From an uncultured Planctomycetaceae bacterium (GTDB lineage: Bacteria; Planctomycetota; Phycisphaerae; SM23-33): a DNA stretch of 61,029 bases. Below are positions 184-59,360 of this stretch, in pieces. The stretch is taken from NCBI GenBank assembly GCA_964625865.1, contig CAZVEV010000002.1:1-61029 (forward strand). The letters are read 5' to 3'. A program made the translations under genes and the position numbers. Each line of letters begins with the position of its first letter. Position 1 is the stretch's first letter. The notes below the pieces were generated by a model. It worked only from the letters and a program-made list of their open reading frames with translations. It did not search any database and had not been told where the DNA came from.

Positions 184-2622
184 ATGCGTCTGAGAACGGT
201 CGTGATGATGATGTCGGTGGCGTTGGCGGCGGGTGCGGTGGACGCGGCTGACGATGGCCCGAAGGCCGCGATCGTGGACGACGTGTCCTACGCGACGGCC
301 CGGGCGCGGGAACTGTGGCGGCCGATGGCGGGATCGGCGGAAGTATCGGCGGTTCAGCAGGGCGGGCGACGGGCGCTGAGGATGCCGTGCACTTTTCGCG
401 GCACGCGGATCGACCGGGCCTCGTGGGACCGCACCGTCGCGCTGGACCTGACGCGGGCCAAGGGGCTGCGGTTTGCGATGCAGTGCGCCGACGCCTCGCC
501 GGTGGGCCACTTCACGGTGTATCTCCGCAGCGGCAAGGGATGGTACAAGGGCGGTTTCAGCGCTCCGCCCGGGCAGGGGTGGGGCCAGGTCACGATCGCC
601 AAGAGCACCATGAGCACCGAGGGCGCCCCGACCGGCTGGGGACGGATCGACGCGATACGCCTCTCCGCGTGGCGCGGCAAGAACGTCGACACGGTGTTCC
701 ACATCGCGGACCTGCGCCTGTACGGACTGGTGACCGGCGGGGTGGTGATCGTCCGAGGCGACCAGGCGCTGACGCGCGGCGCGGGTGAGGCCGAGTCGGT
801 CCGGCGGTACCCGGCCGTCATCGCGGGCATGCTGGACGACGCGGGTCTGGCCAACGTCGTGATGAGCGACAGCGACCTGACCGCGTCGCGGCTGGCCGGC
901 GTCAAGCTGGTCGTCCTGCCGTACAACCCGGTGATGGACGACAGGACGGCGGGCGTGCTGGCGGGGTATCTCAATAAGGGGGGAAAGCTGCTGTCGTGCT
1001 ACCACCTGCCGCGGCGCCTGGCGCCGGTGGTGGGGATCGCGCGGGGCAGGCATATCCGCCAGAAGCGGCCCGGACACTTCGCGTCGATCCGTCCGGTCAC
1101 CGGACTCCTGCCCGGCGCGCCGCAGGCGACGGGGCAGGCCTCGTGGAACATCGGCGCCGCGTCGCCGGTGGCGGGCAAGAGCCGCGTGGCGGCATGGTGG
1201 TACGGGGCGGACGGGCGTACCACGGGTCACGCCGCCGTGGTGGCCAGTGACAATTGCGTGCACCTGACGCACGTGCTGCTTCCCGACGACAGGACGAACA
1301 AGCAGCAGTTCGTACTCGCGATGGTCGGCCAGGCCTCGCCGGGGCTCTGGCGTCAGATCGCGGCCGGGCGAATAACGCGGATCGGCACGTTCGGGCCGTA
1401 TACGGACGTCGCCGCGGCGCGGGCGGGCATCTCGAAACTGGCCGGGGCGTATCGTCCTGCCGTCGAGGCGCTGCAGCGCGGATCGGACCTTGCCGCACGG
1501 GCCAAAAAGGAGGCCTCGGCGGGCGAACACATCGCGGCGGCCGCAACGGCGGGCCGGGCGCGCCGGGCCATGCTCGACGCGTATCTTCGCGCTCGCAAGC
1601 CCGTCGCGGGCGAGCATCGGGCGTTCTGGTGTCACCGTGCGTTCGGCGTGCGCGGCATGACGTGGGACCAGGCGATCAAGACGCTGGCCGATAACGGCTT
1701 CACCGCGATCCTGCCGAACATGTTGTGGGGCCAGACGGCGTTCTATCCGAGCACCGTCCTGCCGGTCTCGCCGCAGGTAGCCGACAAGGGCGACCAGATA
1801 GCCCTCTGCCTGGCCGCCTGCAAGACCTACGGCGTGGCCTGCCACGTGTGGAAGGTCAACTTCAACATGGGGTGGCACGCGAGCAAGAAGACGGCTGCGG
1901 ACATGACCGCCCGGGGGCGGACGCAGGTGGGGTTCGACGGCAAGAGCTATCCGCGATGGCTTTGCCCGTCGCACCCGGACAACCAGGCTCTCGAGATCGC
2001 CTCGATGGTCGAGGTCGCCCGCACCTACGCCGTCGACGGACTGCACTTCGACTACATCCGCTATCCGGGACGCAGCCACTGCTTCTGTGCGGGCTGTCGC
2101 ACGCGGTTCCAGACGTCCGCCGGCGTGACGGTGGCCTGCTGGCCCGCCGACGTGCGGACCGACGCGGCGCTCGAGGCAAAGTGGCTGGACTTCCGCCGGG
2201 CGCAGATCACCGCCGTGGTGGCTGCCGTGGCGACCCAGGCGCGAAAGGTCCGCCCGGGGCTCAAGATCTCCGCGGCGGTCTTCCGCAACTGGCCCGTCGA
2301 CCGCGACGGCGTGGGCCAGGACTGGAAGCTCTGGTGCGAGAAGGGCTACCTGGACTTCGTCTGTCCCATGGACTACACGCCCGACACCGCCCAGTTCGAG
2401 CGGATGGTCACGAGCCAACTCGAGTGGGCCGGCAAGGTGCCCTGCTATCCCGGCATCGGTTTGAGCACGTGGGCCGACGCGGCCGACGTCTGCACGCTGA
2501 TCGACCAGATCGACGTGACCCGCCGCCTCAAGACCGGCGGCTTTACCGTCTTCAACTACTCCACCGCCGAAGCCCGCGACGTCCTGCCGGCCCTGGGCAA
2601 GGGCATGACCCGAAAGCGGTAG
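184..2622 (+). CDS. secreted glycoside-hydrolase-like family 10 (GHL10/DUF187-type) protein
   Basis: ORF 7..2622 trimmed to the ATG at 184, which gives a signal-like N-terminus MRLRTVVMMMSVALAAGAVDA. The C-terminal half has FDYIRYPG, CFCxxC and CPMDYTP motifs typical of GHL10 TIM-barrel proteins. Confidence 0.65.
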   Translation: MRLRTVVMMMSVALAAGAVDAADDGPKAAIVDDVSYATARARELWRPMAGSAEVSAVQQGGRRALRMPCTFRGTRIDRASWDRTVALDLTRAKGLRFAMQCADASPVGHFTVYLRSGKGWYKGGFSAPPGQGWGQVTIAKSTMSTEGAPTGWGRIDAIRLSAWRGKNVDTVFHIADLRLYGLVTGGVVIVRGDQALTRGAGEAESVRRYPAVIAGMLDDAGLANVVMSDSDLTASRLAGVKLVVLPYNPVMDDRTAGVLAGYLNKGGKLLSCYHLPRRLAPVVGIARGRHIRQKRPGHFASIRPVTGLLPGAPQATGQASWNIGAASPVAGKSRVAAWWYGADGRTTGHAAVVASDNCVHLTHVLLPDDRTNKQQFVLAMVGQASPGLWRQIAAGRITRIGTFGPYTDVAAARAGISKLAGAYRPAVEALQRGSDLAARAKKEASAGEHIAAAATAGRARRAMLDAYLRARKPVAGEHRAFWCHRAFGVRGMTWDQAIKTLADNGFTAILPNMLWGQTAFYPSTVLPVSPQVADKGDQIALCLAACKTYGVACHVWKVNFNMGWHASKKTAADMTARGRTQVGFDGKSYPRWLCPSHPDNQALEIASMVEVARTYAVDGLHFDYIRYPGRSHCFCAGCRTRFQTSAGVTVACWPADVRTDAALEAKWLDFRRAQITAVVAAVATQARKVRPGLKISAAVFRNWPVDRDGVGQDWKLWCEKGYLDFVCPMDYTPDTAQFERMVTSQLEWAGKVPCYPGIGLSTWADAADVCTLIDQIDVTRRLKTGGFTVFNYSTAEARDVLPALGKGMTRKR

Positions 2623-4766: not shown

Positions 4767-4942
4767 GAACGTCGATCTGACGATCGACCGCTAAACGCTC
4801 GGCGCCGACGGCGTCTGGCGGGTGCGCCACGCGTTTGCGCCGGGGTCGGAAGGGAACACCGTCTCTGCGCGGAAATACTCTCGGAGCGATATGTGCGTTC
4901 GACATGATTGTTTAGCGGCGGATCGTCAGATCCGCGTTGACG
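4767..4942. repeat. family A MITE-like element (inverted arms GTTTAGCGGTCGATCGTCAGATCGACG)
   Basis: The arm at 4767-4797 is the reverse complement of the arm at 4910-4942. The right arm carries a compensatory variant of the inner hairpin (GCGGATC..GATCCGC instead of GTCGATC..GATCGAC). Confidence 0.7.
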
Positions 4943-5052: not shown

Positions 5053-6192
5053 CTACCTCTCGTCGAGGTCTTCCAGGATGCGGAGGTAGGAGTTGTAGCG
5101 GCGGGGGGTGATGGTGGCGGACTCGACGGCGGCCTGCACGGCGCAGCCGGGCTCGTGGGTGTGGGTGCAGTCGTTGAAGCGACAGTCGGGGGCGACGGCC
5201 TCGATCTCGGGGAAGTACCAGGGCAGTTCGTCGGCGTCGAGCTTCATGCCCAGTTCGCGAATCCCCGGCGTGTCGATGATCAGCCCGCCGCACGACAGGT
5301 CGTAGACGACCGCCGCGCTGGTGGTGTGGCGCCCCCGCTCGTCCTTGTCGCGAACGGTCCGCGTGACGGCATTGACGTCGGGGAGCAGGGCGTTGACCAG
5401 CGTGGTCTTGCCCACGCCGGAGGCCCCGGCCAGCACGCTGCGTTTGCCGGCCAGCGCGGCGGTCAGGTCGTCAAGCCCCTCGCCGCTGGCGGCCGAGCAG
5501 AACAGGATGTCGATATCGAGGGCCTTGAAGTCGCGCAGGACGTGCGGGTCGGGCCGGCCGAGGTCGATCTTGTTGATCACGAGCACGGGCGTCAGCTCGC
5601 CGCGTTCGGCGATGATGAGGAAGCGGTCGATCAGCCCGTGTCGCAATGCGGGTCGGCGCGTGGCGGCGACGATCAGCAGGACGTCCATGTTGGCGGCGAT
5701 GACCTTCTCGAAGGCCTCGTCGTCGTAGGCGTCGCGGAACTTGCCCGACCGCGGGCGGGGGCGGGCGAGCACGGTGCGGCGCAGCTCGCGCGAGAGGATC
5801 ATCCCGTCGGCGCGGTCGCGATCCTCGTCGGTGGCGTCGGCGTGCTGGCCGCCCGTCAGGGCCACCGTCACGTCGTCGCCGACGGCCAGCGCGCTGGCGC
5901 CGTCCGGGGCGCGGAAGGTCTTGGCGATTCCGCAGAGGATGTCGCTGGCGTCGACCCGGACGGCCGCTCCGCCGGGAAAGAAACTCACCACCATGCCGCG
6001 GACCTGCTCCAACTCGCCCATGTGGCCCGAGGCGTCGGCCTCCGGGTCCAGGCGGCTGGGGGGCAACTTGACGGCGCGCTGCGACGAGAGCTTCTGCCTG
6101 CGCGAGACCGTTCCGCCGTCTTCGTCACCGCTGACGAACCGGTTGTACCAGTCCTTGATGCGCCGCTGCGATTTGCCTTTACGCCGTGCCAT
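5053..6192 (-). CDS. rsgA: ribosome small-subunit-dependent GTPase A
   Basis: Circularly permuted GTPase motifs NKIDL, GASGVGKTTLVNAL and DTPG, plus the C-terminal zinc motif CRFNDCTHTHEPGC. Confidence 0.9.
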   Translation of the reverse strand: MARRKGKSQRRIKDWYNRFVSGDEDGGTVSRRQKLSSQRAVKLPPSRLDPEADASGHMGELEQVRGMVVSFFPGGAAVRVDASDILCGIAKTFRAPDGASALAVGDDVTVALTGGQHADATDEDRDRADGMILSRELRRTVLARPRPRSGKFRDAYDDEAFEKVIAANMDVLLIVAATRRPALRHGLIDRFLIIAERGELTPVLVINKIDLGRPDPHVLRDFKALDIDILFCSAASGEGLDDLTAALAGKRSVLAGASGVGKTTLVNALLPDVNAVTRTVRDKDERGRHTTSAAVVYDLSCGGLIIDTPGIRELGMKLDADELPWYFPEIEAVAPDCRFNDCTHTHEPGCAVQAAVESATITPRRYNSYLRILEDLDER

Positions 6193-6248: not shown

Positions 6249-6338
6249 GCTGTTTCAGTCAAGCGCTCCGATGCCGCTTGCTTCTTGGCGTCTCCCTCGT
6301 TCGTTAAGAAAGACGCCAAGAAGCAAGCTGCTCCGCGC
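6249..6338 (+). repeat. family B hairpin repeat (GCTTGCTTCTTGGCGTC ... GACGCCAAGAAGCAAGC)
   Basis: The ~19-bp stem arms lie at 6273-6292 and 6312-6331. The flank TGTTTCAGTCAAGCGCTCCGATGC is shared with copy B3. Confidence 0.75.
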
Positions 6339-9001: not shown

Positions 9002-10083
9002 CGCCTGCCCTCCGCGTCGGCGATGGCCAGGTCCAAGAGTTCTTCCGCGGCGGGCAGGACCATTTCCGGCGTCATGCCGGACATGCAGCGGTGGTACAGC
9101 GGTCCGGGCGGCTGGGTGCAGAGCTTCTGCTGGCAGGGCGAGCAGGGCACGTCGAGGCGGATGATGCGTTCGCGCGGGTAATCGATCTCGGCCCAGGCCG
9201 GGTCCGTGCTGCCGAACAGCGTCACCACGCCGGTCCCCAGCGCCGCGCCGATATGCCGCGTGCCCGTGTCGTTGGTCACCAGCACGGCGCAGCGGCGGAG
9301 CAGGGCCTTGAGCATGCCGATCGTGTTATCGTAGTGGCCGAAGTTCAGCAGGGCCGGGCGGGTCATGTCGTCCTCGACGGCCAGCGCGATCGCCCGCTCG
9401 CTGGGGGCGGCGTTGATGATGATCTGGGCGCCGCGCCGTTCGATGAGCATGTCGGCCAGCCCCGCATACTGCGCCGGGTCCCACATCTTGGACACGCCGA
9501 ACGATGCGCCCGGATTGAGCATGACCAGGGGGCGAGCGGCGTCAGCCCCGGCGGCGACGAGCAGTTCATCGGCCTCCCGGGCGTCCTCGGGCGACACGCG
9601 CAGGTGCATCTCGCGGCTGTCCGGCGCCGCGTCCAGCAGGGCTACCAGGTTGATGTAGTAGTCGATCGCGGAGATCGGCGTCAGGCGCCCGTCGTCATCG
9701 CGAGGCGGGTCCAGGGCGTCGGTGAGCATCCAGCCGCGCCCGTCGCGGTTGTAGCCGACCAGGCGGGAGATGCCCGCCATCTTCGCCACGAACGCCGAAC
9801 GGAAACTGTTGGGCAGGATCACCGCGATATCGTGCCGGCCCGCCCGCAGCAGGCCCGTCATGCCGATCATCCCGCTGACCATGGGCCCGGACCGCGACGG
9901 GTCGGCGATGCCGTTCTCCGCGATCGGCAGGGCCGCCAGCGTATCCAGCGCCACCGGCTTGCCCACCAGCGTGATCGGACTGTGATCAAAACGGCTGCGC
10001 AGGGCGCGCAGGGCGGGGGTGGCCATCACCACGTCGCCTACCCAGTTGGGCAGGACCACCACGATGTTCGGCGGAGCGGGCAT
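8998..10083 (-). CDS. glycosyltransferase family 9 (LPS heptosyltransferase-like)
   Basis: N-terminus MPAPPNIVVVLPNWVGDVVMATPALRALR is typical of GT9, with a C-terminal TNDTGTRHIGAALG motif. An alternative start exists at 10119. Confidence 0.8.
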   Translation of the reverse strand: MPAPPNIVVVLPNWVGDVVMATPALRALRSRFDHSPITLVGKPVALDTLAALPIAENGIADPSRSGPMVSGMIGMTGLLRAGRHDIAVILPNSFRSAFVAKMAGISRLVGYNRDGRGWMLTDALDPPRDDDGRLTPISAIDYYINLVALLDAAPDSREMHLRVSPEDAREADELLVAAGADAARPLVMLNPGASFGVSKMWDPAQYAGLADMLIERRGAQIIINAAPSERAIALAVEDDMTRPALLNFGHYDNTIGMLKALLRRCAVLVTNDTGTRHIGAALGTGVVTLFGSTDPAWAEIDYPRERIIRLDVPCSPCQQKLCTQPPGPLYHRCMSGMTPEMVLPAAEELLDLAIADAEGRR

Positions 10084-14392: not shown

Positions 14393-14444
14393 GCGGAGAT
14401 GTGATGTGGGGTGGCACGTTCCTTCCTGGCGGATGTCCACAACG

Positions 14445-14640
14445 ACAGAAAGAGGACGGGGATTACACGGATTAAGGGATTCGGGGGATTCAAGATGCGA
14501 GGTCGTTCAGGTTTGACTATGCGCAGCGTGAATCACACAGAACGCGGCGAGCAAGCTCGCCCGCTAGACATGGAACACACGCCGACATCTCAATCCCTCT
14601 AATCCCTTACTCCGTGTAATCCCCGTCCTCCGTCTGTTCT
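14445..14640. repeat. MITE-like element with ~45-bp imperfect terminal inverted repeats (family K)
   Basis: The left arm ACAGAAAGAGGACGGGGATTACACGGATTAAGGGATT matches the reverse complement of 14591-14640. A central palindrome GGCGAGCAAGCTCGCC is present. Confidence 0.65.
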
Positions 14641-14793
14641 CGTGGGCGTTTGGCGCCTCGCCAGAGAATCAGGTCGCATGCTGATCCGTCGCGAAATGGA
14701 TTGGCGTTTGCCCCTGACAGGTCCGCCCGATACAATGCCGCCCGGCGGCCGCCCGGCGGTCGCTCATCGGAAACCCCCAACGGACACCGAATC

Positions 14794-19113: not shown

Positions 19114-19261
19114 AAACGCCCACAGGCTCCGCCTGTGGGGTATCCGCGAACGAGAGTCGGTCCGCGGGAAAGGTGGACTCGATGGCGCACGCTGATGGAC
19201 CGTATGACGATGACGGGATGCGTTGTCGAAGATACCCCACAGGCGGAGCCTGTGGGCGTTT
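19114..19261. repeat. family E inverted hairpin pair
   Basis: AAACGCCCACAGGCTCCGCCTGTGGGG at 19114-19140 and its reverse complement at 19235-19261. Confidence 0.7.
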
Positions 19262-20645: not shown

Positions 20646-20685
20646 GCGCACGGCGCCGCACGCGTCATGAACTACTCGGGGTCGG

Positions 20686-20760
20686 ACGTTTCGATGCAGC
20701 TTGCTTCTTGGTGTCTTCCTCAACGAATCGCCAAGACGCGAAGAAGCAAGCTGCTCCGCA
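20686..20760 (+). repeat. family B hairpin repeat
   Basis: GCAGCTTGCTTCTTGGTGTC (20697-20716) pairs with GACGCGAAGAAGCAAGCTGC (20735-20754). Confidence 0.7.
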
Positions 20761-20803
20761 CAGTCATGTTGACATCGCTCTGTGCGCGAGCCGTTCGCCC
20801 CGA

Positions 20804-23435: not shown

Positions 23436-24281
23436 ATGCTGCTTGGATCACACTTGAGCATTGGCGGCGGGCTGCACCGTGCGCCCGAAGCGGCCGCCGA
23501 GTACGGCTTCGAGACCGTCGCGATGTTCCTGCGCAACCAGGTGCAGTGGCGTTGTCGCCCGCTTGACGCCCAGGCCGTGGCGCAGTTCAAGCGCGCCCGC
23601 AAGGCTGCCGGCATCGCGGTGGTGGTGGCCCACGGGTCCTACCTGGTGAACCTCGCGGGCCTGGCGCCGGTTCGCAGGAAGTCGATCCGGGCCATGATCG
23701 AGGACCTGGACCGCTGCGGGCAACTGGGGGTCGAGTACCTGGTGATCCACCCGGGCTCGCGCCGGCAGGCGGATCGCGGGATCGACCTGATCGCGCGGGC
23801 GCTGAACGAGATATTCGCCGCCTGCCCGCACCGGCGCCCGAAGATCCTGCTGGAGACCACCGCGGGGTCGGGCAACACGCTGGGCAGATCGTTCGAGCAG
23901 TTGGCCGCCATCCTGGCTCGCGTGGACCGTCCCCGGCGCGTGGGGGTCTGCCTCGACACCTGTCACATCTTCGCCGCCGGTTACGACATCCGCACGCCTG
24001 GGGCCTGCCGCCACACGCTCGACGCGTTCGATCGCATCATCGGCCTGGACCGACTGCGAGCAATTCACCTGAACGACTCGCGCCGCGAACTGGCCAGCCG
24101 CGTCGACCGCCACGCGCACATCGGCCTGGGCGAGATCGGCCTGCGGGGCTTTGCGGCGCTGGTGGGCGACAAGCGACTGTCCGACGTGCCGATGATCCTC
24201 GAGACGCCCAAGGGCCTCGACGATCAGGGGCGCCAGTGGGACGCGGTCAACGCCGAGATCATCCGCAAGATGGCTCTGTAG
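23436..24281 (+). CDS. nfo: deoxyribonuclease IV (endonuclease IV)
   Basis: MLLGSHLSIGGG..., VVAHGSYLVNL, LVIHPGS and CLDTCHIFAAGYD motifs. An alternative GTG start exists at 23430. Confidence 0.85.
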   Translation: MLLGSHLSIGGGLHRAPEAAAEYGFETVAMFLRNQVQWRCRPLDAQAVAQFKRARKAAGIAVVVAHGSYLVNLAGLAPVRRKSIRAMIEDLDRCGQLGVEYLVIHPGSRRQADRGIDLIARALNEIFAACPHRRPKILLETTAGSGNTLGRSFEQLAAILARVDRPRRVGVCLDTCHIFAAGYDIRTPGACRHTLDAFDRIIGLDRLRAIHLNDSRRELASRVDRHAHIGLGEIGLRGFAALVGDKRLSDVPMILETPKGLDDQGRQWDAVNAEIIRKMAL

Positions 24282-24282
24282 A

Positions 24283-24299
24283 CGCGGCATCTTGCCGCG
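24283..24299 (+). terminator. small hairpin after nfo (CGCGGCA-TCT-TGCCGCG)
   Basis: The hairpin follows the stop codon directly. Its exact reverse complement recurs at 24374-24390. There is no clear T-tract. Confidence 0.3.
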
Positions 24300-24373
24300 T
24301 TCCCTCCATATCGTAGAGACCACCTGGCTCGCTCCCGTCATACGGTCGGAGAGCGCACTTGCAGGCCGTTCAA

Positions 24374-24390
24374 AGCGGCAAGATGCCGCT
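24374..24390 (-). terminator. small hairpin after the lipoprotein gene (same 15-nt motif, opposite strand)
   Basis: AGCGGCAAGATGCCGCT on the plus strand. On the minus strand it is followed by TTGAAC. Confidence 0.3.
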
Positions 24391-24399
24391 TCCACAGTT

Positions 24400-33449: not shown

Positions 33450-33538
33450 GCGCGGAGCAGCTTGCTTCTTGGCGTCTTGGTGAACGAGAAGGACGCCAAG
33501 AAGCAAGCTGCATCGAAGCGTCTGACTGAAACAACGCG
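33450..33538 (-). repeat. family B hairpin repeat (reverse orientation)
   Basis: GCAGCTTGCTTCTTGGCGTC (33457-33476) pairs with GACGCCAAGAAGCAAGCTGC (33492-33511). The flank is the reverse complement of the B1 flank. Confidence 0.75.
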
Positions 33539-37354: not shown

Positions 37355-39349
37355 TCAGTTCCGTCGCAGCGCCATCAGGGTCACGTCGTCCTGCTGGGCG
37401 TGGGTGCGGTACTGCTCGACGGTCTGGACGACGAGGTTGGTGATCTCTTCGGGGTTGGCGGTGGGGTTCTGGGCGATGATCCGCTCGAAGCGGTCGAGGC
37501 TGAACTGGCGGTCGGCGGCGTCGAGGGCCTCGGTCACGCCGTCGGTGTAGAGCACCAGCGAGGCCCCGTGGTCCAGTTGGACCGTCCGCTGGGTGTACTG
37601 TTGGTCGGCGAAGACGCCCAGGATCGGCCCGGTGCTTTCGGCCAGGCGGTGGACGTCGCCCCGGCCGCCAATGCAGGGCGGGTTGTGGCCGGCGTTGGCG
37701 TAGACCAGCTCGCCGGTCCGCGTGTTGTAGTGGGCGAAGAACAGCGTCACGAACATCGCGCGGTCGTTGTCGGAGGCGATGATGTGGTTGGCGCGGGTCA
37801 GCACGTCCTTGGGGGCCTTGCCCGAGATCGCCTGGGCGCGGAGGACCGTTCGCGTCATGGCCATGAAGATCGCCGCCGGCGCGCCCTTGCCCGAGACGTC
37901 GGCGATCACCAGGGCCAGCGTGTCGTCGTCGACGAAGAAGAAGTCGAAGAAGTCGCCGGCGACCTGCTTGGCCGGCACGACCATGGCGTGGAGGTCGAAC
38001 TCGCCGCGGTCCGGATACGGCGGGAACGCCTGGGGCAGCAGCGAGGTCTGGATATCGCGGGCGAAGCGCAGTTCGCTTTCGACGGCCTGCCGGGCCGCCG
38101 TCTCGTCGGTCAGGGCGGCGATGTGACGCTTCAGGTCGCTGACCATGGTGTTGAACGCCCCGGCCAACTCGCCGATCTCGTCCTGGCTGTCGATGCCTTC
38201 TGCCCGGACGTCGAGGTCCCCGTCGGCGACGTGTCGCACCACGGCGGCCAGCGTGCTGATCGGGCGCGTCATGCGGATCGAGACCAGCAGGACCATCGCC
38301 ATGATAACCCCAAGCCCGCCGAGCATGATCGACATGTTGCTTCGCAGTCGCTGGGACACCGGGTCCATGATCCGCGATTCGGGAATCACCGCCGCAAAGG
38401 ACCAGCCGGGACTCTCGACCGGGGAGAAGACCACCCAGTCGGTCTGCCCGTCTTGCCCGGGCAGTTTGCGGATCCCGCGAATGCCGTTGGCCATATCATC
38501 GGCCAGGTCGGACAGGGCCGGCTCGTCGTTGGACTCAGCCAGCGCGTAGAGGTTCTGCTTCATCTGGTATCGCTTCGATGGGTGGGCGACGAGCAGTCCG
38601 GCGTGGCTGACGAGCATGCAGTGGCCGCCCTCGAGCTTCGTGCTGTCGACGTACTGGCAGAACCGTTTGACGGAGATATCGAAGGCCACCACGCCGACGA
38701 ACTGCTCCTCGCGCATCAGCGGGACGGTGTATCGGCAGATGGGGGTCTGGCCCGCGGTTTTGACCAGTCGCGGCTCGGACCAGGCGGGCTGTCCGGTCGT
38801 GCGGGCGAAGGCGTACCAGTCTTCCTCGAAGAACGTCGGGTGGTCCTTGGCCAGGTCCCCGCGTCTGAAGGGCGGGGCCTTGCGGAATCGGGCGGCGGGC
38901 CCCTTGGCGGGTCTGGAGGCCGGCTGTCCGGGCTTGCGTCCGCCGCGCCCGGGCGCGGGGGCGGCCGGCTCGGTCTCGACGCGGTAGAAGTACTGTCCCG
39001 CATGGTTCGCATTGCCCGCAACGCCCGGCTCTATCGCGACGACCGCACCGAACAACAGCGGATCGCCGCTGACGCGTCGGGCGAGATAGAAGCTGCTCTG
39101 TCGCGGGGGCGTGAGGGTCTGTCGGTCAGCGATGAGGGTTGCTACGGCCGCCGCAGCCTGCTCGGCGGCGCGGAATCGCCCGTCGAGGCGCGTGGCGTGG
39201 TTTGAGGCGAGTTCCTTGAGGTGCTGTTCCGCCTGGGCCTGAGCCTGCCTCTTGCCCGTGGTGTAGTTGATCGCCAGCACGCCCAGGTAGACCGCCAGCA
39301 GGGGCAGGAGAATCGCGACTATCAGTTTTGTGCGTATGGATGTTCGCAT
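37355..39349 (-). CDS. sensor protein phosphatase: Cache-like periplasmic domain, HAMP, PP2C/SpoIIE
   Basis: N-terminal TM segment, ~300-aa extracytoplasmic region, second TM, HAMP-like region (PISTLAAVVRHVADGDLD), then a PP2C region (GDFFDFF, VIADVSGKG, YTDGVTEA). Confidence 0.85.
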   Translation of the reverse strand: MRTSIRTKLIVAILLPLLAVYLGVLAINYTTGKRQAQAQAEQHLKELASNHATRLDGRFRAAEQAAAAVATLIADRQTLTPPRQSSFYLARRVSGDPLLFGAVVAIEPGVAGNANHAGQYFYRVETEPAAPAPGRGGRKPGQPASRPAKGPAARFRKAPPFRRGDLAKDHPTFFEEDWYAFARTTGQPAWSEPRLVKTAGQTPICRYTVPLMREEQFVGVVAFDISVKRFCQYVDSTKLEGGHCMLVSHAGLLVAHPSKRYQMKQNLYALAESNDEPALSDLADDMANGIRGIRKLPGQDGQTDWVVFSPVESPGWSFAAVIPESRIMDPVSQRLRSNMSIMLGGLGVIMAMVLLVSIRMTRPISTLAAVVRHVADGDLDVRAEGIDSQDEIGELAGAFNTMVSDLKRHIAALTDETAARQAVESELRFARDIQTSLLPQAFPPYPDRGEFDLHAMVVPAKQVAGDFFDFFFVDDDTLALVIADVSGKGAPAAIFMAMTRTVLRAQAISGKAPKDVLTRANHIIASDNDRAMFVTLFFAHYNTRTGELVYANAGHNPPCIGGRGDVHRLAESTGPILGVFADQQYTQRTVQLDHGASLVLYTDGVTEALDAADRQFSLDRFERIIAQNPTANPEEITNLVVQTVEQYRTHAQQDDVTLMALRRN

Positions 39350-39521
39350 TCAGCGCTCGTGGCGTGTCGTCAATACGGGCCCCGCCGGACAATGGCGTCG
39401 CCCTTCCATTATATAACGCACGAGATGTCCCAACGTTGCACTCTTGCGGCCCGGCGGCGCCGCATGCATCATGGTGGCGTCGTTCCGGACCGCACCGATG
39501 GGCCTGATTCGGAGAACAGAT

Positions 39522-40544
39522 ATGACGCCCCGCGAGATCGTACTCGAACAGATCCATCACCGTCGGACACCCACCGTACCGTACACCCTCCGTTTCGAGG
39601 GCGATATTGACGAGCAACTGAACGCCCACTACGGCGGCGACGACTGGCGCGACCGCCTGACGACGTATATCATCCGCGTGGGCGCCGTCGAGACCAACGT
39701 CAGCGAACCGGTCGATGACGAGCACTTTCGCGGCGGATTCGGCGAGTTGTGGCGGTCGGACAGGAGGCCATGGCATCTCGAGACGCCCCCGCTTGCCGCC
39801 CCGACGCTCGACGGGTACGACTTCCCGACGCCCGAGAGCTTCTTCCGACCCGACTGGAAAGCCCAAGGCTTCGCCACCTGCGATGCGACAGCCGACACCT
39901 TCCTGATAGGCGACCTGGGCTGGGGACTCTTCGAGCGCAGTTGGACGTTGCGCGGCTTCGAGAACGCCCTGATGGACGCGGCGCTGAACGAGGACTTCTA
40001 CATCGAGATGCTCGATCGCCTGGTCGAACTGTACCTCGCGTTCGTGGACTACACCGTCGACCTGCCGGTCGATGCGATCCTGTTCGGCGACGACTGGGGC
40101 GACCAGCGAGGGGTGATCCTGGGCCCCGAGCGGTGGCGCAAGCTCATCAAGCCGCGCTGGGCGAAGATCTACGCCGCCGTCCACGATGCGGGGAAGATCG
40201 TGATGAGCCATTCATGCGGCTCGGTCGCCGAGATTATCCCGGACATCATCGAGATCGGCCTGGACGTGCTGGAGAGCGTCCAGCCGGAGGCGGCGGGGAT
40301 GAACCCCTACGAACTGAAGGCCCGGTGGGGGGACAAGCTGACGTTCTGGGGGGCGCTGGGCAGCCAAAGCACGCTGGGGCAGGGCACGAGCGATGATGTC
40401 CGCGCCGAGGTAGCCCACCTGTGCAGCGAGATGGCCCGCGGAGGCGGGTACATCCTCGCCCCCGCCAAGCCCCTCCAGCCGGGTATGCCCATCGAAAACG
40501 CCGTCGCCCTGGTCGAAGCCCTTGCGGAGATCACCCCCGCCTGA
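39522..40544 (+). CDS. uroporphyrinogen decarboxylase (URO-D) family protein
   Basis: Trimmed to MTPREIVLEQIHH. DDWGDQRG and HSCGSV motifs are typical of the URO-D/MtaA-like family. Confidence 0.7.
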   Translation: MTPREIVLEQIHHRRTPTVPYTLRFEGDIDEQLNAHYGGDDWRDRLTTYIIRVGAVETNVSEPVDDEHFRGGFGELWRSDRRPWHLETPPLAAPTLDGYDFPTPESFFRPDWKAQGFATCDATADTFLIGDLGWGLFERSWTLRGFENALMDAALNEDFYIEMLDRLVELYLAFVDYTVDLPVDAILFGDDWGDQRGVILGPERWRKLIKPRWAKIYAAVHDAGKIVMSHSCGSVAEIIPDIIEIGLDVLESVQPEAAGMNPYELKARWGDKLTFWGALGSQSTLGQGTSDDVRAEVAHLCSEMARGGGYILAPAKPLQPGMPIENAVALVEALAEITPA

Positions 40545-40724
40545 GCTGGATCGCTGAAGCGACCAGCCCGAAAGAAACCTGCGCGCGAGAGGGTTCGAAA
40601 GAGAACTTCGCGCGAGAGGGTTCGAAAGGGAACTTCGTGCGAGAGGGTTCGAAAGAGAACTGTGTGCGAGAGGGCGGACCTTCGCCCGAAGGGCGAATCG
40701 GGCTGGTCGCTTCAGCGATCCAGC
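40545..40724. repeat. REPIN-like composite hairpin, left flank of the RAYT gene
   Basis: The terminal arms GCTGGATCGCTGAAGCGACCAGC (40545-40567) and GCTGGTCGCTTCAGCGATCCAGC (40702-40724) are exact reverse complements. Four 27-bp tandem units occupy 40570-40677. Confidence 0.8.
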
Positions 40725-40761
40725 TCTGAGACGATCGCTCCTCACTGCCCGGCGAGCAGGT

Positions 40762-41367
40762 TCACCTCCGCACGCTTCTGCCCCGAGACTCCTGGTACCG
40801 CTTGTACGGGACGGTCTCCATGAACGCGCCGAGCTCCAGCGCGCGCCTGACCCCCGCCTCGAGTTCAATCCGCATTCGCGTGCCTTCAAACTCACGCCAG
40901 TCGTCGCCCAGGCCGTGTCGCCTGCACTGGGTCAGCGTGTAGCGATACGCACGCCGACACTGCTTCTCATCGCGGATGCACCCGTCGAAGTAGTCCTGGT
41001 GTCCGGCTTCTCGCCAGAAGCGCGTGCGTCGCTCGGGCAGGACGTCGTTGACGAGTTTCGCGACCGATCCGTGGATCCGCTGCATCATCCGCCCCAGGTT
41101 TCGCCCGTGTTTGCAGTAGCCCAGCACGTGGTAATGGTTGCCCACCAGCGATGTGACCCACGGGAAGAACTGGCAGGCGGAGGTGTAGTGTTCGAAACGG
41201 TCCCAGAAGATCGCCTGGGCTTGGGGCGCTGCAAACGCCATGTAGCGGTCCCTGCATCGCGCGGTGATGAAGTAGACCTGGTTGTCGACGTACCAGTGCT
41301 CGAAGCGGTGGTGTCCGTCGGTATGGTGGTCGCGCGTCGAGGAGCACTTGACGATGCGCTTGAACAT
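40762..41367 (-). CDS. REP-associated tyrosine transposase (RAYT) / IS200-like HUH transposase
   Basis: YFITARCRDR, HUH motif NHYHVL, FWREAGHQDYFDGCIRDE and the catalytic-Tyr region AYRYTLTQ. About 200 aa. Flanked on both sides by the same hairpin repeat. Confidence 0.7.
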   Translation of the reverse strand: MFKRIVKCSSTRDHHTDGHHRFEHWYVDNQVYFITARCRDRYMAFAAPQAQAIFWDRFEHYTSACQFFPWVTSLVGNHYHVLGYCKHGRNLGRMMQRIHGSVAKLVNDVLPERRTRFWREAGHQDYFDGCIRDEKQCRRAYRYTLTQCRRHGLGDDWREFEGTRMRIELEAGVRRALELGAFMETVPYKRYQESRGRSVRR

Positions 41368-41440
41368 GGAGGTCTCCCGCGTGATTGCTCTTGTTTGGTC
41401 ATTCCCACGTGATCACTGGCACTGGAACGCTCGGATAAGA

Positions 41441-41641
41441 GCTAGATCGCTGAAGCGACCAGCCCGAAAGAATGCTCCAGGCGAGTGGGTAGATCGTACT
41501 CGATATGCGCGGAGGGACAAGTCTGTTCCTGCAAGGCCTTCCCCACGTGCAGTTCTCCCTCCCACGTGCGGTTCCCCCCTGCGCGCAGTTGTCCCTCCCG
41601 CGCGCCGTTCTCTTTCGGGCTGGTCGCTTCAGCGATCCAAC
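41441..41641. repeat. REPIN-like composite hairpin, right flank of the RAYT gene
   Basis: Arms GCTAGATCGCTGAAGCGACCAGC (41441-41463) and GCTGGTCGCTTCAGCGATCCAAC (41619-41641). Four degenerate 17-19-nt tandem units occupy 41544-41616. Confidence 0.8.
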
Positions 41642-41763
41642 TCTTCCGTCCCGAACGCTGTATCGCGCGCGGTGATCCCCAGACGCTCTCGCCCGGTTGA
41701 CCCCTGCGCGCCAGATGATAGAATGCTCGCCGCGAATGCGGGGGCGGGAGAAGGGCTTTTCTT

Positions 41764-42930
41764 ATGGCGAAAACACGAATTGGACTGGTCGGATTCGGGA
41801 CGATGGGCGTTGCCCACAGCAGGTATCTGACCGCCGGCGAGGTCCCGGATGCGGAACTGACGGCCGTCTGCGACCTCAGCGAGACGAACCTGGCGCGGGC
41901 CAAGGACACGCTGGGCGACGCGGTGGCCTACTTCAGCGACACCGAGGCGATGTTCACCTCGGGGCTGATCGACGGCGTACTGGTGGCCACCCCGCATTAC
42001 TTCCACCCGGAGGTCGCGATCGCCGCATTCGCCAAGGACCTGCACGTACTGATCGAGAAGCCCGCGGGCGTTCACACCAGGCACGTCCGCGAGATGAACG
42101 AAGCGGCGGCCGCCAGCGGCAAGGTCTTCAGCATCATGTTCCACATGCGGACGCGCCCGATCCACCAGAAGCTCAAGGACCTGATCGACTCGGGGCAACT
42201 CGGCCGGATCAAGCGGTTCGGCTGGGTGGCCACCGACTGGTATCGTCCGCAGGCGTATTACGATTCGAGCTTGTGGCGGGCGACCTGGAAGGGCGAGGGC
42301 GGCGGCGTGCTGATCAACCAGTGCGCCCACGACCTGGACACGTGGCAGTGGTTGTGCGGCCTGCCGAAGCGTGTGCGGGCGTTCTGCAGTTTCGGCAAGT
42401 ATCACGAGTTGGAGGTCGAGGACGACGTGACGGCCTACGTGGAATATGAAAGCGGGGCCACCGGCACGTTCATCACGTCGACCGGCGAGGCGCCGGGGTC
42501 GAATCGGATGGAGATCGTGGGCGACAACGGCAAGGTCGTGATGGAAAACGACGAGTTGACGTTCTGGCGGCTCCGCACGCCCGAGCCGCAGTTTACCCGC
42601 GAGACGGAAAACGGCTTCTCCGAGCCGGAGTGCTGGCGCTGCGAGATCCCCGTGCGCAAGAGCGAGCCGGAGCACAAGAAGATCACCGCCAACTGGGTCG
42701 CCGCCATTCGCGACGGCGGGAAGACCGAGCTTATCGTCCCGGGGGCCGACGGCATCAACAGCCTCGAACTGTCCAACGCGATGCTCCTGTCGACCTGGAC
42801 GGACGCCTGGGTGGACCTGCCCGTTGACGCCGACCTGTTCACCGCTGAACTCCAGGACCGCATCGCCAACTCGACGATCAAGAAGAAGCCCCCCACGGGG
42901 AAGATCATGGACGTGACCGAGTCGTGGTAG
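41764..42930 (+). CDS. Gfo/Idh/MocA family oxidoreductase
   Basis: MAKTRIGLVGFGTMG Rossmann motif and the EKP motif. 388 aa. Confidence 0.85.
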   Translation: MAKTRIGLVGFGTMGVAHSRYLTAGEVPDAELTAVCDLSETNLARAKDTLGDAVAYFSDTEAMFTSGLIDGVLVATPHYFHPEVAIAAFAKDLHVLIEKPAGVHTRHVREMNEAAAASGKVFSIMFHMRTRPIHQKLKDLIDSGQLGRIKRFGWVATDWYRPQAYYDSSLWRATWKGEGGGVLINQCAHDLDTWQWLCGLPKRVRAFCSFGKYHELEVEDDVTAYVEYESGATGTFITSTGEAPGSNRMEIVGDNGKVVMENDELTFWRLRTPEPQFTRETENGFSEPECWRCEIPVRKSEPEHKKITANWVAAIRDGGKTELIVPGADGINSLELSNAMLLSTWTDAWVDLPVDADLFTAELQDRIANSTIKKKPPTGKIMDVTESW

Positions 42931-42947
42931 ATTGTCGTTATCTCCAT

Positions 42948-43130
42948 GTTTAGCGGTCGATCGTCAGATCGACGTTCGTCGTACGACAACGCATAGCGTG
43001 ACGCACGGGTCGGATCGACATTCGTCGTTTGGACGATGAACGTCGCGCGAACGACGAGCGTCGATCTGACGATCGACCGCTAAACGTGGAAGAAACGACA
43101 ACATAGTGTTAAACGTGGAGTGAACGACAA
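42948..43130. repeat. family A MITE-like element
   Basis: The arm at 42948-42987 (GTTTAGCGGTCGATCGTCAGATCGACGTTCGTCGTACGAC) pairs with the inverted arm at 43057-43088. It is followed by two AAACGTGGARNRAACGACAA units. Confidence 0.7.
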
Positions 43131-43218
43131 GTTTGCTTGCAATCCCGGGCGATTCGGGCATGATAGCGGGACACTGAGGTCACGTCCGGTGGGGGGCGGG
43201 CACTATGGATTACTCACC

Positions 43219-44400
43219 ATGACAAAGAAGACGGTTCGTACGGGCATTGTCGGCTCGGGTTTCTCCGCGTCCTTCCATTTCGAGGCGATTCGCAAGGTCT
43301 ATGGCACGGACGTGGACGTGCGGGGCGTGTTCTCTCTTGATACCGAGCAGGCGGCTGAGTACGCCCGGACGCGAGGGATTACGCAGTTCGAGAGCCTTGA
43401 GGCCATGCTCGATGAAGTGGACGTCGTCCACGTGTGCACCACGGCCACCTCGCACGAGGCGGTGGCCGTCGAGGCCCTCGCCCGCGACACGTTCGCCATC
43501 GTCGAAAAGCCGCTGACGGGTTACTTCGGCGATGGCAGCGACGACTTCAACGGCGAGACGTGCGACAAGACGGTCGCCCAGGCTGCGGCGCTGGACAGCG
43601 TCCGTCGCATGCTGGCCGCCGAAGCCGACAGCAAAGGGCGCATCCTCTACGCCGAGAACTGGGTCTACGCCCCGTCGATCCAGAAGGAGCGCGAGATTCT
43701 CGAGAAGACCGGCGCGCAGATCCTCTGGATGCACGGCGAGGAGGCCCACTCCGGCTCGCACGCGGCGACCTATGCGTACTGGAAGTACTCCGGCGGGGGG
43801 GTGATGATTGGCAAGGGGTGTCATCCGCTGACGGCGGCACTGTACCTCAAGCGCGTCGAGGGCAAGGCGCGCGATGGCAAGCCCATCCGCCCGGTGGCCG
43901 TCTCGGCCCGCACGCATGCGATAACGCGGATGGACTCCTTCCGCGACGAGGGCCACATCCGCTCGAACTACCACGACATCGACGACCTGTCGCTGATGCA
44001 CGTGGTGTTCGCCGACGGCTGCGTGGCCGACATCTTCGCCTCGGACATCGTCCTGGGCGGGATCCACAACTGGCTGGAGGTCTCGACCAACAACCACCGC
44101 TCGATCTGCAACATCAACCCGAACACGGCCATGCAGACCTACAACGCCCTGGAGACGAACTTCGCGGACATCTACACCGTCGAGAAGATCGGCACGAAGC
44201 AGGGCTGGACGTGTGTCTCGCCGGACGAGGACTGGTTTACGGGCTACCCGCAGGAGATCGAGGCGTTCTACCGGGCGGTGGCCTACGGTGACGAGGTCGA
44301 GAGCGACAGTTCGCTGGCCGCCGACTGCATCGCCACCACGTACAGCGCGTATGTTTCTGCCGAGAAACGCGGCGCCGAGGTCGCGGTTGAATCACTGTGA
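43219..44400 (+). CDS. Gfo/Idh/MocA family oxidoreductase
   Basis: Trimmed to MTKKTVRTGIVGSGFSASFH. Has the EKP motif. Confidence 0.85.
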   Translation: MTKKTVRTGIVGSGFSASFHFEAIRKVYGTDVDVRGVFSLDTEQAAEYARTRGITQFESLEAMLDEVDVVHVCTTATSHEAVAVEALARDTFAIVEKPLTGYFGDGSDDFNGETCDKTVAQAAALDSVRRMLAAEADSKGRILYAENWVYAPSIQKEREILEKTGAQILWMHGEEAHSGSHAATYAYWKYSGGGVMIGKGCHPLTAALYLKRVEGKARDGKPIRPVAVSARTHAITRMDSFRDEGHIRSNYHDIDDLSLMHVVFADGCVADIFASDIVLGGIHNWLEVSTNNHRSICNINPNTAMQTYNALETNFADIYTVEKIGTKQGWTCVSPDEDWFTGYPQEIEAFYRAVAYGDEVESDSSLAADCIATTYSAYVSAEKRGAEVAVESL

Positions 44401-49511: not shown

Positions 49512-49616
49512 GGCGCCGTGGTTTGACGCAAAGCGGCACCCACGATTCCCGAAAGGAGACAACCTGCCTGTCGGCAGGCAGGCGTGGTTGCCGCATCACG
49601 TCAAACCACGACACCC
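49512..49616. repeat. family D inverted pair
   Basis: GGCGCCGTGGTTTGACGCAAAGCGGCACCCACG (49512-49544) and the reverse-oriented copy at 49583-49616 flank the palindrome CTGCCTGTCGGCAGGCAGG. Confidence 0.65.
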
Positions 49617-50340: not shown

Positions 50341-50485
50341 CTTGTCGTTCGTTCCACGTTTAACGGGCGAGCTTGCTCGCCGCGTTCCTCGTTCGATCCA
50401 CGCAGCGTGTTCTCTGCCTGTCGACGTCGCAAGCGACGCCGCACGCGGAGCAAGCTCCGCCGCTAAACGTGGAAGGAACGACAGG
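50341..50485. repeat. family A-variant MITE-like element
   Basis: The arm CTTGTCGTTCGTTCCACGTTTAACGG (50341-50366) pairs with GCCGCTAAACGTGGAAGGAACGACAGG (50459-50485). Internal palindromes include GCGAGCTTGCTCGC and GGAGCAAGCTCC. Confidence 0.65.
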
Positions 50486-59133: not shown

Positions 59134-59252
59134 GCGCCGCGCGGGCAATCCATGTCCCACGGGAGGCATTGTCGCGGGCGAGAGAGGCAGTGTCAAGAGG
59201 AATCGGGACAGGGTGAATGTCGGGCGTTGCTTTCCTGTGCGCGCCAGGGCGG

Positions 59253-59339
59253 AGCCGCGGCGTATCGCCGCGGTGCCGTTTGTCCTACGTATGAATACCG
59301 TGCTCGAAGGCAACGGCACGGCGGCGATACGCCGCGGCT
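59253..59339. repeat. long hairpin (28-bp stem, 1 mismatch, ~31-nt loop), family J
   Basis: AGCCGCGGCGTATCGCCGCGGTGCCGTT (59253-59280) pairs with AACGGCACGGCGGCGATACGCCGCGGCT (59312-59339). Confidence 0.65.
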
Positions 59340-59360
59340 TCGCCCTGTGACGCGACGGAC

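Follow-up and report, generated by a model that had tools for sequence, protein, structure and literature searches.

Does a small transposase-like gene that is bracketed by long hairpins form one system with them, or has it merely come to lie among the palindromes of a repeat-rich genome? This question is raised by contig CAZVEV010000002.1 of an uncultured Planctomycetaceae bacterium, of which we analyzed a 61-kb stretch (hereafter the window; all coordinates are window positions unless a homolog locus, numbered L001 and so on, is named). The original prediction held that the gene encodes a protein like the repetitive extragenic palindrome (REP)-associated tyrosine transposases (RAYTs) and that two composite hairpins of the REPIN type, that is, inverted REP pairs, stand on either side of it. 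A RAYT gene flanked by REPs or REPINs is termed a REPtron, an arrangement described in E. coli and Pseudomonas (PMC3116915, PMC3337134, PMC5581495, PMC6006769). We conclude that the locus is probably a REPtron, in which an intact HUH-Y1 gene of the RAYT/TnpA_REP type is accompanied on both sides by inverted pairs of its cognate REP hairpin. The fold and catalytic motifs of the protein, purifying selection on the gene, co-occurrence of gene and hairpin, covariation in the hairpin stem and dispersal of the hairpin in other genomes carry this conclusion.

The open reading frame (ORF) at 40762-41367 on the minus strand is intact and encodes 201 amino acids, among them the motifs YFITARC, NHYHVL, GCIRDE and AYRYTLTQ. 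Across 28 diverse homologs, H78, Y79, H80, Y143 and Q147 are invariant; H78-Y79-H80 make up the HUH motif, Y143 is the predicted catalytic tyrosine, and Q147 lies four residues beyond it (Y+4). Searching the PDB by sequence, whether the query was the single protein or a profile of the 28 sequences, gave no meaningful match, and comparison of folds alone succeeded. An AlphaFold model of the 201-residue protein (predicted local distance difference test score, pLDDT, 77.6) has as its best Foldseek match 4ER8 (E = 1.3e-5, TM-scores 0.50/0.60), the E. coli RAYT described as 'REP associated tyrosine transposase bound to a REP hairpin'. About 20 chains of the IS608, ISDra2 and IS200 TnpA proteins follow. 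When the protein is aligned to E. coli RayT with hhalign, HYH pairs with HMH, Y143 with Y115 and Q147 with N119, and the '...RHG' after the Tyr helix is also aligned. Because the hhalign probability is low (6%, E = 0.006), this residue pairing rests mainly on the invariant columns and the fold match. The fold and the invariant motifs bear out the call of a RAYT-like HUH protein, with profile scores that stay below threshold.

The family to which the protein belongs is compact. The matches of all 28 members to NCBIfam NF047646 (REP-associated tyrosine transposase, REP_Tyr_transpos) span almost the whole model, the best at E = 2.9e-20, and just 14 of the 28 match Pfam PF01797, with a best E of 4e-4. 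Scanned singly, the window protein and three clade representatives score 50-66 bits on NF047646, under its 80-bit cut-off. A word-indexed search returned 2040 homologs at E <= 0.001, and identity to the window protein is 60-81% for the best 120. Where the source names an organism, it nearly always belongs to the Planctomycetota (Lacipirellula, Bythopirellula, Lacipirellulaceae). JGI often labels these proteins 'REP element-mobilizing transposase RayT' and NCBI often labels them 'hypothetical'; NCBI-style annotation mostly does so because the clade falls under the curated cut-offs of the RAYT and IS200 hidden Markov models. An exhaustive profile search of 1.84 billion cluster representatives gave only 56 matches at E <= 1e-30, mostly fragments, and therefore the clade is compact. 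The next relatives, at E ~1e-14 with the family profile, pass the NF047646 cut-off (81-101 bits) and carry NHYH or EHYH together with the canonical Y-I-x-x-N-P.

The motif around the tyrosine sets the clade apart. RAYTs of class 2 read Y-[IV]-x-x-N-P, and IS200 transposases read Y-x3-Q (Table 1 of PMC6006769). The protein described here reads Y143-T-L-T-Q147-C, with an invariant Gln and without the Pro. Comparison of coding sequences with two orthologs gave a dN/dS of 0.15-0.20 at a dS of ~0.8, which indicates that the gene is under purifying selection. These data place the protein, an HUH-Y1 enzyme, on the RAYT side of its family, within a subclade of its own that has an IS200-type Gln at Y+4.

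On each side of the gene lies an inverted pair of one 23-nt hairpin, GCTGGATCGCTGAAGCGACCAGC, which occurs four times in the whole 61 kb. It consists of a 5-bp stem, a bulged A, a 4-bp stem and a TGAA loop. Two copies are exact, at 40545-40567 on the plus strand (copy 1, followed by the tail CCCGAAAG; 45.6 bits) and at 40702-40724 on the minus strand (copy 2, proximal to the RAYT gene; 46.7 bits). Two have one mismatch, at 41441-41463 on the plus strand (copy 3, GCTAGATCGC..., gene-proximal; 40.7 bits) and at 41619-41641 on the minus strand (copy 4, GTTGGATCGC..., the outer right end; 42.5 bits). These scores come from a covariance model of 81 hairpin copies that was run unfiltered on the whole window, where the four flanking copies reach 41-47 bits and the next match reaches 14 bits. 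No chance match to GCTGGATCGCTGAAGCGACCAGC appeared in 100 dinucleotide-preserving shuffles.

Each pair consists of one plus-strand and one minus-strand copy with their 3' tails toward each other. The left element (40543-40726, 184 bp) has perfect 29-nt arms and a 126-nt spacer, and the right element (41437-41645, 209 bp) has 35-nt arms that are 94% complementary and a 139-nt spacer. Folded as single-stranded DNA, both close as a single long hairpin, at -65.7 kcal/mol (z = -10.3) for the left element and -64.6 kcal/mol (z = -9.7) for the right. Two inverted REPs that fold into one long hairpin define a REPIN, and both elements have this form, with arms of 29-35 bp. The original prediction was thus right about the four copies in two inverted pairs and about the absence of the hairpin elsewhere in the window.

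The spacers of both pairs hold tandem arrays, which are the two strongest tandem repeats of the window. Most of the left spacer is a 27-nt unit, CGAAAGAGAACTGCGCGCGAGAGGGTT, repeated 3.9 times (40569-40674, plus strand; Tandem Repeats Finder (TRF) score 156, 89% matches), and this unit is the sequence immediately after the hairpin. The array of the right spacer is a 19-nt unit repeated 3.8 times (41542-41612, minus strand; TRF score 72), the reverse complement of a shortened left unit. We considered whether the 27-nt unit is an independent dispersed repeat and ruled this out, as it has no other occurrence in the window. The left element lies 3' of the RAYT gene, and its start coincides with the end of the stop codon of a URO-D-family gene. 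The right element lies 5' of the RAYT gene and ends ~50 nt before a promoter-like site. The whole unit is ~1.1 kb long (40543-41643), and its outermost 51 nt form a 90% inverted repeat.

The hairpin stem covaries among copies. At the inner stem, TCGC..GCGA and TCAC..GTGA stand in a ratio of 33:44, a compensatory change at positions where the search pattern permitted all four base combinations. The closing pair, which the search left unconstrained, is C-G, A-T or G-C in a ratio of 52:12:4, and CTGG..CCAG has become CGGG..CCCG in 4 copies. Base pairs are formed in 97.5% of stem cells overall, and both partners have changed in 3 of 9 pairs. The covariation score, the paired fraction and the number of doubly changed cells reached the observed level in 0 of 500 shuffles. 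The pair-count measures, which the tool rates as more specific, reached it in 91 and 150 of 500 shuffles and did not distinguish the alignment from chance. Most copies have a purine as their bulge, and the Lacipirellulaceae versions have no bulge. The TGAA loop is conserved, as is an unpaired CC(G) 3' of the stem, which on the other strand is (C)GG 5' of the stem. The 3' ends read CCGA in the copies of the window, L001 and L011, and GCCG or GCCT in most dispersed copies.

If gene and hairpin belong together, they should be found together at other loci. We examined nine further loci with homologs of 60-80% protein identity, from Planctomycetia, Phycisphaerae, Thermoguttaceae and Lacipirellulaceae. 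The same hairpin stands within ~200 bp of the gene at 10/10 loci (the window, L001, L003, L008, L011, L022, L040, L070, L071 and L072), and on both sides of it at a minimum of 7 of the 10, the window included. The commonest layout is that of the window, [+ -] gene [+ -]. Copies lie on both sides at L008, L011 and L040 and not on both sides at L022. At L001 three tandem copies and one inverted copy precede the gene and a pair follows it; at L003 a pair lies upstream. L070 (Lacipirellula) has a single copy on either side, L071 (Bythopirellula) has tight pairs with 5-nt spacers on both sides, and L072 has an upstream pair and a degenerate downstream copy. The 21-nt core of the hairpin differs by 0-3 nt between loci whose genes are at dS ~0.8, and therefore it is far more constrained than neutral sequence.

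These loci also account for the length of the window's pairs, which had been described as far longer than classical REPINs. The description is correct, since relatives with the [+ -] gene [+ -] layout have spacers of 5-52 nt. Because these relatives hold the same layout with tight pairs, the long pairs of the window are a lineage-specific expansion of the spacer; tandem copies of the stretch immediately 3' of the hairpin fill it. Tandem arrays beside hairpins recur at independent loci, namely L001, L072 and the window. At L001 (5788-5892) three whole hairpins stand in tandem with a 35-nt period, and at L072 (~9896-9960) the 3' half of the hairpin with its tail (TGAAGTGACCAGCCCTATAA) forms a 24-nt unit repeated ~2.5 times. 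The arrays may have arisen either by replication slippage at the hairpins or as a by-product of cleavage and rejoining.

The hairpin is not private to this locus. Besides its presence at the nine homolog loci, it is dispersed without the gene in other Planctomycetota assemblies, where the covariance model gave 45 matches on 34 gene-less loci of four assemblies. The metagenome-assembled genome (MAG) UR.bin180 (JAKJER01) has 20 copies at 15 loci, CAZYDC01 has the hairpin without a gene nearby at 8 loci and CAYWTX01 at 5, and in the metagenome JAANMW01 it is found on 8 contigs. At about 9 of the gene-less sites the hairpin forms a tight inverted pair, its two copies a few nt apart (2-4 nt where read). 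Of 69 copies subjected to a crude ORF test, 45 fall outside ORFs, and many are within 100 nt of an ORF end. The density in UR.bin180 is roughly one copy per several hundred kb, and therefore a 61-kb window free of further copies is uninformative. This hairpin system is not REP-rich in the sense of E. coli or Pseudomonas. The species-representative genomes that we scanned for the hairpin do not include the source organism, and the window, together with copies of its locus in two metagenome assemblies at 99.9% identity, has no hairpin copy other than the four at the flanks. We also looked among JGI metagenome contigs for exact matches to the hairpin with its tail, GATCGCTGAAGCGACCAGCCCGA, and obtained 0, a result that is uninformative because the JGI contig of this locus was itself not returned.

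Some single copies deserve mention in their own right. L003 has a weak, degenerate copy (GCTGGTCACTGAAGTGACACAGC; 2429-2463, minus strand, 22.6 bits) 3.5 kb from its RAYT gene, in an intergenic space flanked by genes for a phosphoribosyltransferase and a radical-SAM protein; this copy may be what is left of dispersal in a close relative. Exact matches to the core also occur beyond the Planctomycetota (L007 6746-6766, L036 6235-6255 and L018 3973-3993). The match in Pseudomonas brassicacearum lies inside a 1375-aa ORF and is probably due to chance. Another is in a Methanocellales MAG, and a third is in a 'Bacteroidetes' MAG, where the flanks resemble those of the Thermoguttaceae copy L029 and the assignment may reflect mis-binning. 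Two contigs of JAANMW01 have near-identical tight pairs with identical flanking sequence (L057 3435-3490 and L058 1900-1955). By the crude stop-to-stop test they lie within long ORFs of 434 and 1312 aa, respectively, and they could represent a duplicated region or an in-frame intragenic insertion.

The neighborhood of the gene is partly conserved and partly not. The order surE-guaA-RAYT-ABC-F is common to Lacipirellula and Bythopirellula, which indicates vertical inheritance in these genera. The closest orthologs of the window gene (77-80% identity) lie between argG and aroE at L001 and, at L003, with a sulfatase gene on one side and a DUF5329 gene on the other. The window has one copy of the RAYT gene, and the neighborhoods of its orthologs include both conserved and differing ones. 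Orthologs of the URO-D gene with 81-83% identity have no RAYT unit adjoining them, and their right-hand neighbors differ as well. At L067 the left-hand neighbor, a dCache/HAMP/SpoIIE gene, is kept and the right-hand neighbor is different. The unit therefore sits at a break in gene order. The original prediction suggested an insertion into a catabolic locus. URO-D orthologs without the unit lend this weak support, but since their right-hand neighbors differ, they offer no clean empty site. At L065, where the URO-D gene is 83% identical, several copies of a different hairpin repeat (GGCATTCCTGCC / GGCAGGAATGCC; 6010-6140) follow URO-D instead of the RAYT unit, and the position after URO-D seems prone to acquire repeats. 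Three assemblies of the window's locus are 99.9-99.99% identical, with no indel and no polymorphism in array length or in presence of the unit.

How might such a system work? By analogy to E. coli TnpA_REP and IS608 TnpA, whose biochemistry is summarized in PMC6006769, we infer the catalysis, the cleavage site, the strand used and activity in this organism. The enzyme would recognize the bulged 9-10-bp hairpin on single-stranded DNA. H78, H80 and Q147 would coordinate a divalent metal, and the strand would be cut beside the foot of the hairpin through a covalent 5'-phospho-Y143 intermediate and then rejoined. Single hairpins and hairpin pairs could thereby be copied or moved into intergenic sites. 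If guide bases lie 5' of the foot, as they do in known systems, the active strand would be the complement, 5'-(C)GG-N-CTGGTC(R)CTTCAG(Y)GA-(Y)-CCAG-N'.

Several observations weigh against reading the locus as a REPtron. The window protein scores 17.1 bits (E = 0.006) on Pfam PF01797 (Y1_Tnp), below the gathering score of 23, and 53.2 bits (E = 2.8e-14; model positions 3-143 of 146) on NCBIfam NF047646, for which the cut-off is 80. Its Gln at Y+4 is that of IS200, where class-2 RAYTs have Asn-Pro. The hairpin copies that we aligned carry no GTAG guide tetranucleotide, and a conserved GTGG or CGTC tag is likewise absent from them. Confident copies in the 61-kb window and in ~90 kb around homologs stand only at the flanks of the gene, far sparser than in REP-rich genomes, and the 184- and 209-bp composites were found nowhere besides this locus. 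Given this sparseness, ongoing mobilization in the source organism is no more than a possibility.

Sparse copies could mean that the RAYT is domesticated and acts locally, so that there is no hairpin dispersal here and the four flanking hairpins serve the gene or the host. We think this unlikely. It agrees with the tightness of the clade, most members of which are >60% identical across Planctomycetia and Phycisphaerae and fall into few 50%-identity clusters. Purifying selection, the surE-guaA-RAYT-ABC-F order of Lacipirellula and Bythopirellula, a hairpin core so little changed at gene dS ~0.8 and the lack of a dispersed copy in the 61-kb window and in most homolog-locus flanks all point the same way. 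However, the hairpin is dispersed as singlets and tight pairs in no fewer than four other assemblies, and a density as low as about 1 per 300 kb, that of UR.bin180, would leave 61 kb empty by chance. The local role might be, for example, autoregulation, processing of single-stranded DNA, or that of a terminator or insulator between URO-D and RAYT, which are convergent, and the Gfo/Idh/MocA operon downstream. The start of the left element on the URO-D stop codon, between convergent genes, also favors a local role, and a scan for terminators, which found none with a T-tract, speaks against it. Local function also overlaps with the REPtron reading, and the two are not mutually exclusive.

Movement of the whole ~1.1-kb unit (40543-41643) would be a different matter. 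The locus would then be an autonomous element, inserted between URO-D and the Gfo/Idh/MocA genes, that is either like an IS200/IS605 insertion sequence (IS) or a 'TIRtron', in which terminal inverted repeats enclose a tyrosine transposase gene (Di Nocera et al. 2013, PMC3733652). The outer 51-nt inverted repeat and the Y-x3-Q motif, which IS200 transposases share (Table 1 of PMC6006769), are what such an element might show, and the 77-80% orthologs in unrelated neighborhoods (argG/aroE at L001; sulfatase/DUF5329 at L003) and the 81-83% URO-D orthologs without an adjoining unit would fit its mobility. However, there is one gene copy per locus, with no second in the window or the contigs examined, and two other metagenome assemblies have the locus at 99.9% identity without a presence/absence variant. 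Gene order is conserved in Lacipirellulaceae, and the units dispersed in other genomes are hairpins alone, without the gene. IS200/IS605 elements have unlike hairpins at their left and right ends and lack terminal inverted repeats, and no target-site duplication or empty site is on hand. We consider an autonomous element highly improbable. That the hairpins are ordinary terminator-like palindromes between genes and have nothing to do with the RAYT gene is scarcely credible. The window does have many other intergenic inverted-repeat families, but four copies of GCTGGATCGCTGAAGCGACCAGC were found where zero were expected, T-tracts are absent, and the same 21-nt core stands beside a homologous gene at 60-80% protein identity at every locus. 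This last explanation is effectively refuted by the 10/10 co-occurrence. These results leave the REPtron as our preferred reading.

Among the closest known systems is E. coli K-12 RayT (YafM, TnpA_REP), which with its REP/BIME (bacterial interspersed mosaic element) flanks is the prototype REPtron (Quentin et al. 2018, PMC6006769). RayT is the best structural match, the HUH motif and the Tyr align, the C-terminal '...HG' is shared, and both are single genes flanked by inverted pairs of a cognate bulged hairpin. In contrast, the proteins are only ~12-20% identical, and the window protein has Gln147 for Asn119, lacks the Pro and has ~35 extra residues. The window hairpin lacks the 5' GTAG guide of E. 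coli REPs and has its conserved unpaired CC(G) on the opposite side, and copy density is far lower than in E. coli with its several hundred REPs. The RAYT-REPIN system of Pseudomonas fluorescens SBW25 (Bertels & Rainey 2011, PMC3116915; Bertels et al. 2017, PMC5581495) consists of a single-copy RAYT gene flanked, as here, by inverted pairs that can fold into one long hairpin, with evidence for vertical inheritance and purifying selection. The window too shows one gene copy and purifying selection, and gene order in Lacipirellulaceae points to vertical inheritance there. It differs from the window, where the pairs are 184 and 209 bp long with internal tandem arrays, and from the window's relatives, where dispersed pairs are ~45 nt with a 2-5-nt spacer. 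It also belongs to another phylum, and Pseudomonas REPs differ between species, whereas the core described here is conserved across much deeper divergences.

Transposases of the IS200/IS605 type (IS608, ISDra2; class 1 TnpA_Y1) share the fold and the Y-x3-Q signature. However, the Pfam match is sub-threshold, the gene has one copy per locus and there is no tnpB. Instead of one hairpin at the left end and a different one at the right, the same inverted hairpin stands on both sides here, and it is dispersed without the gene. Class 3 TnpA_Y1 proteins are found mainly in Planctomycetes, also in Acidobacteria, and are intermediate between IS200 transposases and RAYTs (PMC6006769). They share the phylum, a Gln-type Y-motif and non-GTAG flanking hairpins that can be repeated in the genome. 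Judged by published motifs alone, they carry NHVH, W[TA] and YV[VI][AENY]EQ where the window protein has NHYH, WR (FWRE) and YTLTQ, and their 5' foot CnGA is loosely matched by CCGA on the 3' side of some copies (window, L001, L011). The closest canonical relatives of the window protein are NHYH-type RAYTs. TIRYT genes with their TIRtrons, and the multiple families of tyrosine transposases and repeats in Rhodopirellula baltica (Di Nocera et al. 2013, PMC3733652), resemble the window in that a planctomycete tyrosine transposase gene is bracketed by inverted repeats and several palindromic families coexist in the genome. The flanking repeats of the window are stem-loops of REP type, unlike the plain terminal inverted repeats of TIRtrons, and no CTGG-TC(R)C-TGAA hairpin turned up in the text of PMC3733652.

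The surroundings of the unit hold further features. A promoter-like site at 41697-41724 on the plus strand (TTGACC-16 nt-TAGAAT, with TG upstream) lies just outside the right hairpin pair and ~40 nt ahead of 41764, where the ATG of the Gfo/Idh/MocA gene stands. Rfam gave no match in 39000-43500 at permissive thresholds. We dropped a simple intrinsic-terminator reading of the hairpins, as the terminator scan of 40300-41900 revealed no T-tract terminator, and treated as spurious the high-GC ORFs on the plus strand, such as 40915-41412, whose span overlaps the RAYT gene.

The window has several other inverted-repeat families. A second REPIN-like family has three dispersed copies in the 61 kb (42932-43101, 4768-4938 and 50343-50483), with arms of 29-54 nt, spacers of 62-113 nt and the shared sequence ...CGCTAAACGTGGAAG.AACGACA. 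One copy lies directly between two Gfo/Idh/MocA genes, and we saw no transposase gene in the window that might be cognate to this family. A third, short palindromic family (6273-6331, 20685-20765 and 33457-33511) shares GCAGCTTGCTTCTTGGCGTC and has arms of ~20-33 nt and spacers of 15-17 nt. Further inverted repeats, each of them single, are at 14437-14645, 19114-19261, 24276-24397, 49512-49615 and 59245-59347. The source genome is rich in hairpin repeats.

To our knowledge, RAYT-REP systems have been studied almost wholly in Proteobacteria. The locus described here belongs to a distinct subclade within a known kind of system and involves no new mechanism, and it documents a compact, strongly conserved clade in the Planctomycetota. 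The clade could be phylum-wide and vertically inherited, marked by the IS200-type Gln of its catalytic helix and by a cognate hairpin that has hardly changed across orders and classes, with the enzyme and its hairpin kept as a pair for a function in the host and not for the spreading of repeats; we regard this as quite doubtful. If it were true, the hairpins of most genomes would persist solely at the flanks of the gene, where they might serve self-regulation or the processing of single-stranded DNA at their own locus, and the recurrent tandem arrays beside them would be footprints of cleavage and rejoining. For comparison, the REPtron described here combines the IS200-type Y-x3-Q and REPtron architecture in one system, keeps its hairpin throughout a phylum-level clade and over much deeper divergence than Pseudomonas or enterobacterial REPs do, and offers a natural series of spacers in hairpin pairs from 5 nt to 139 nt. 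These features could help to test how RAYTs recognize their hairpins and whether such systems have been domesticated.

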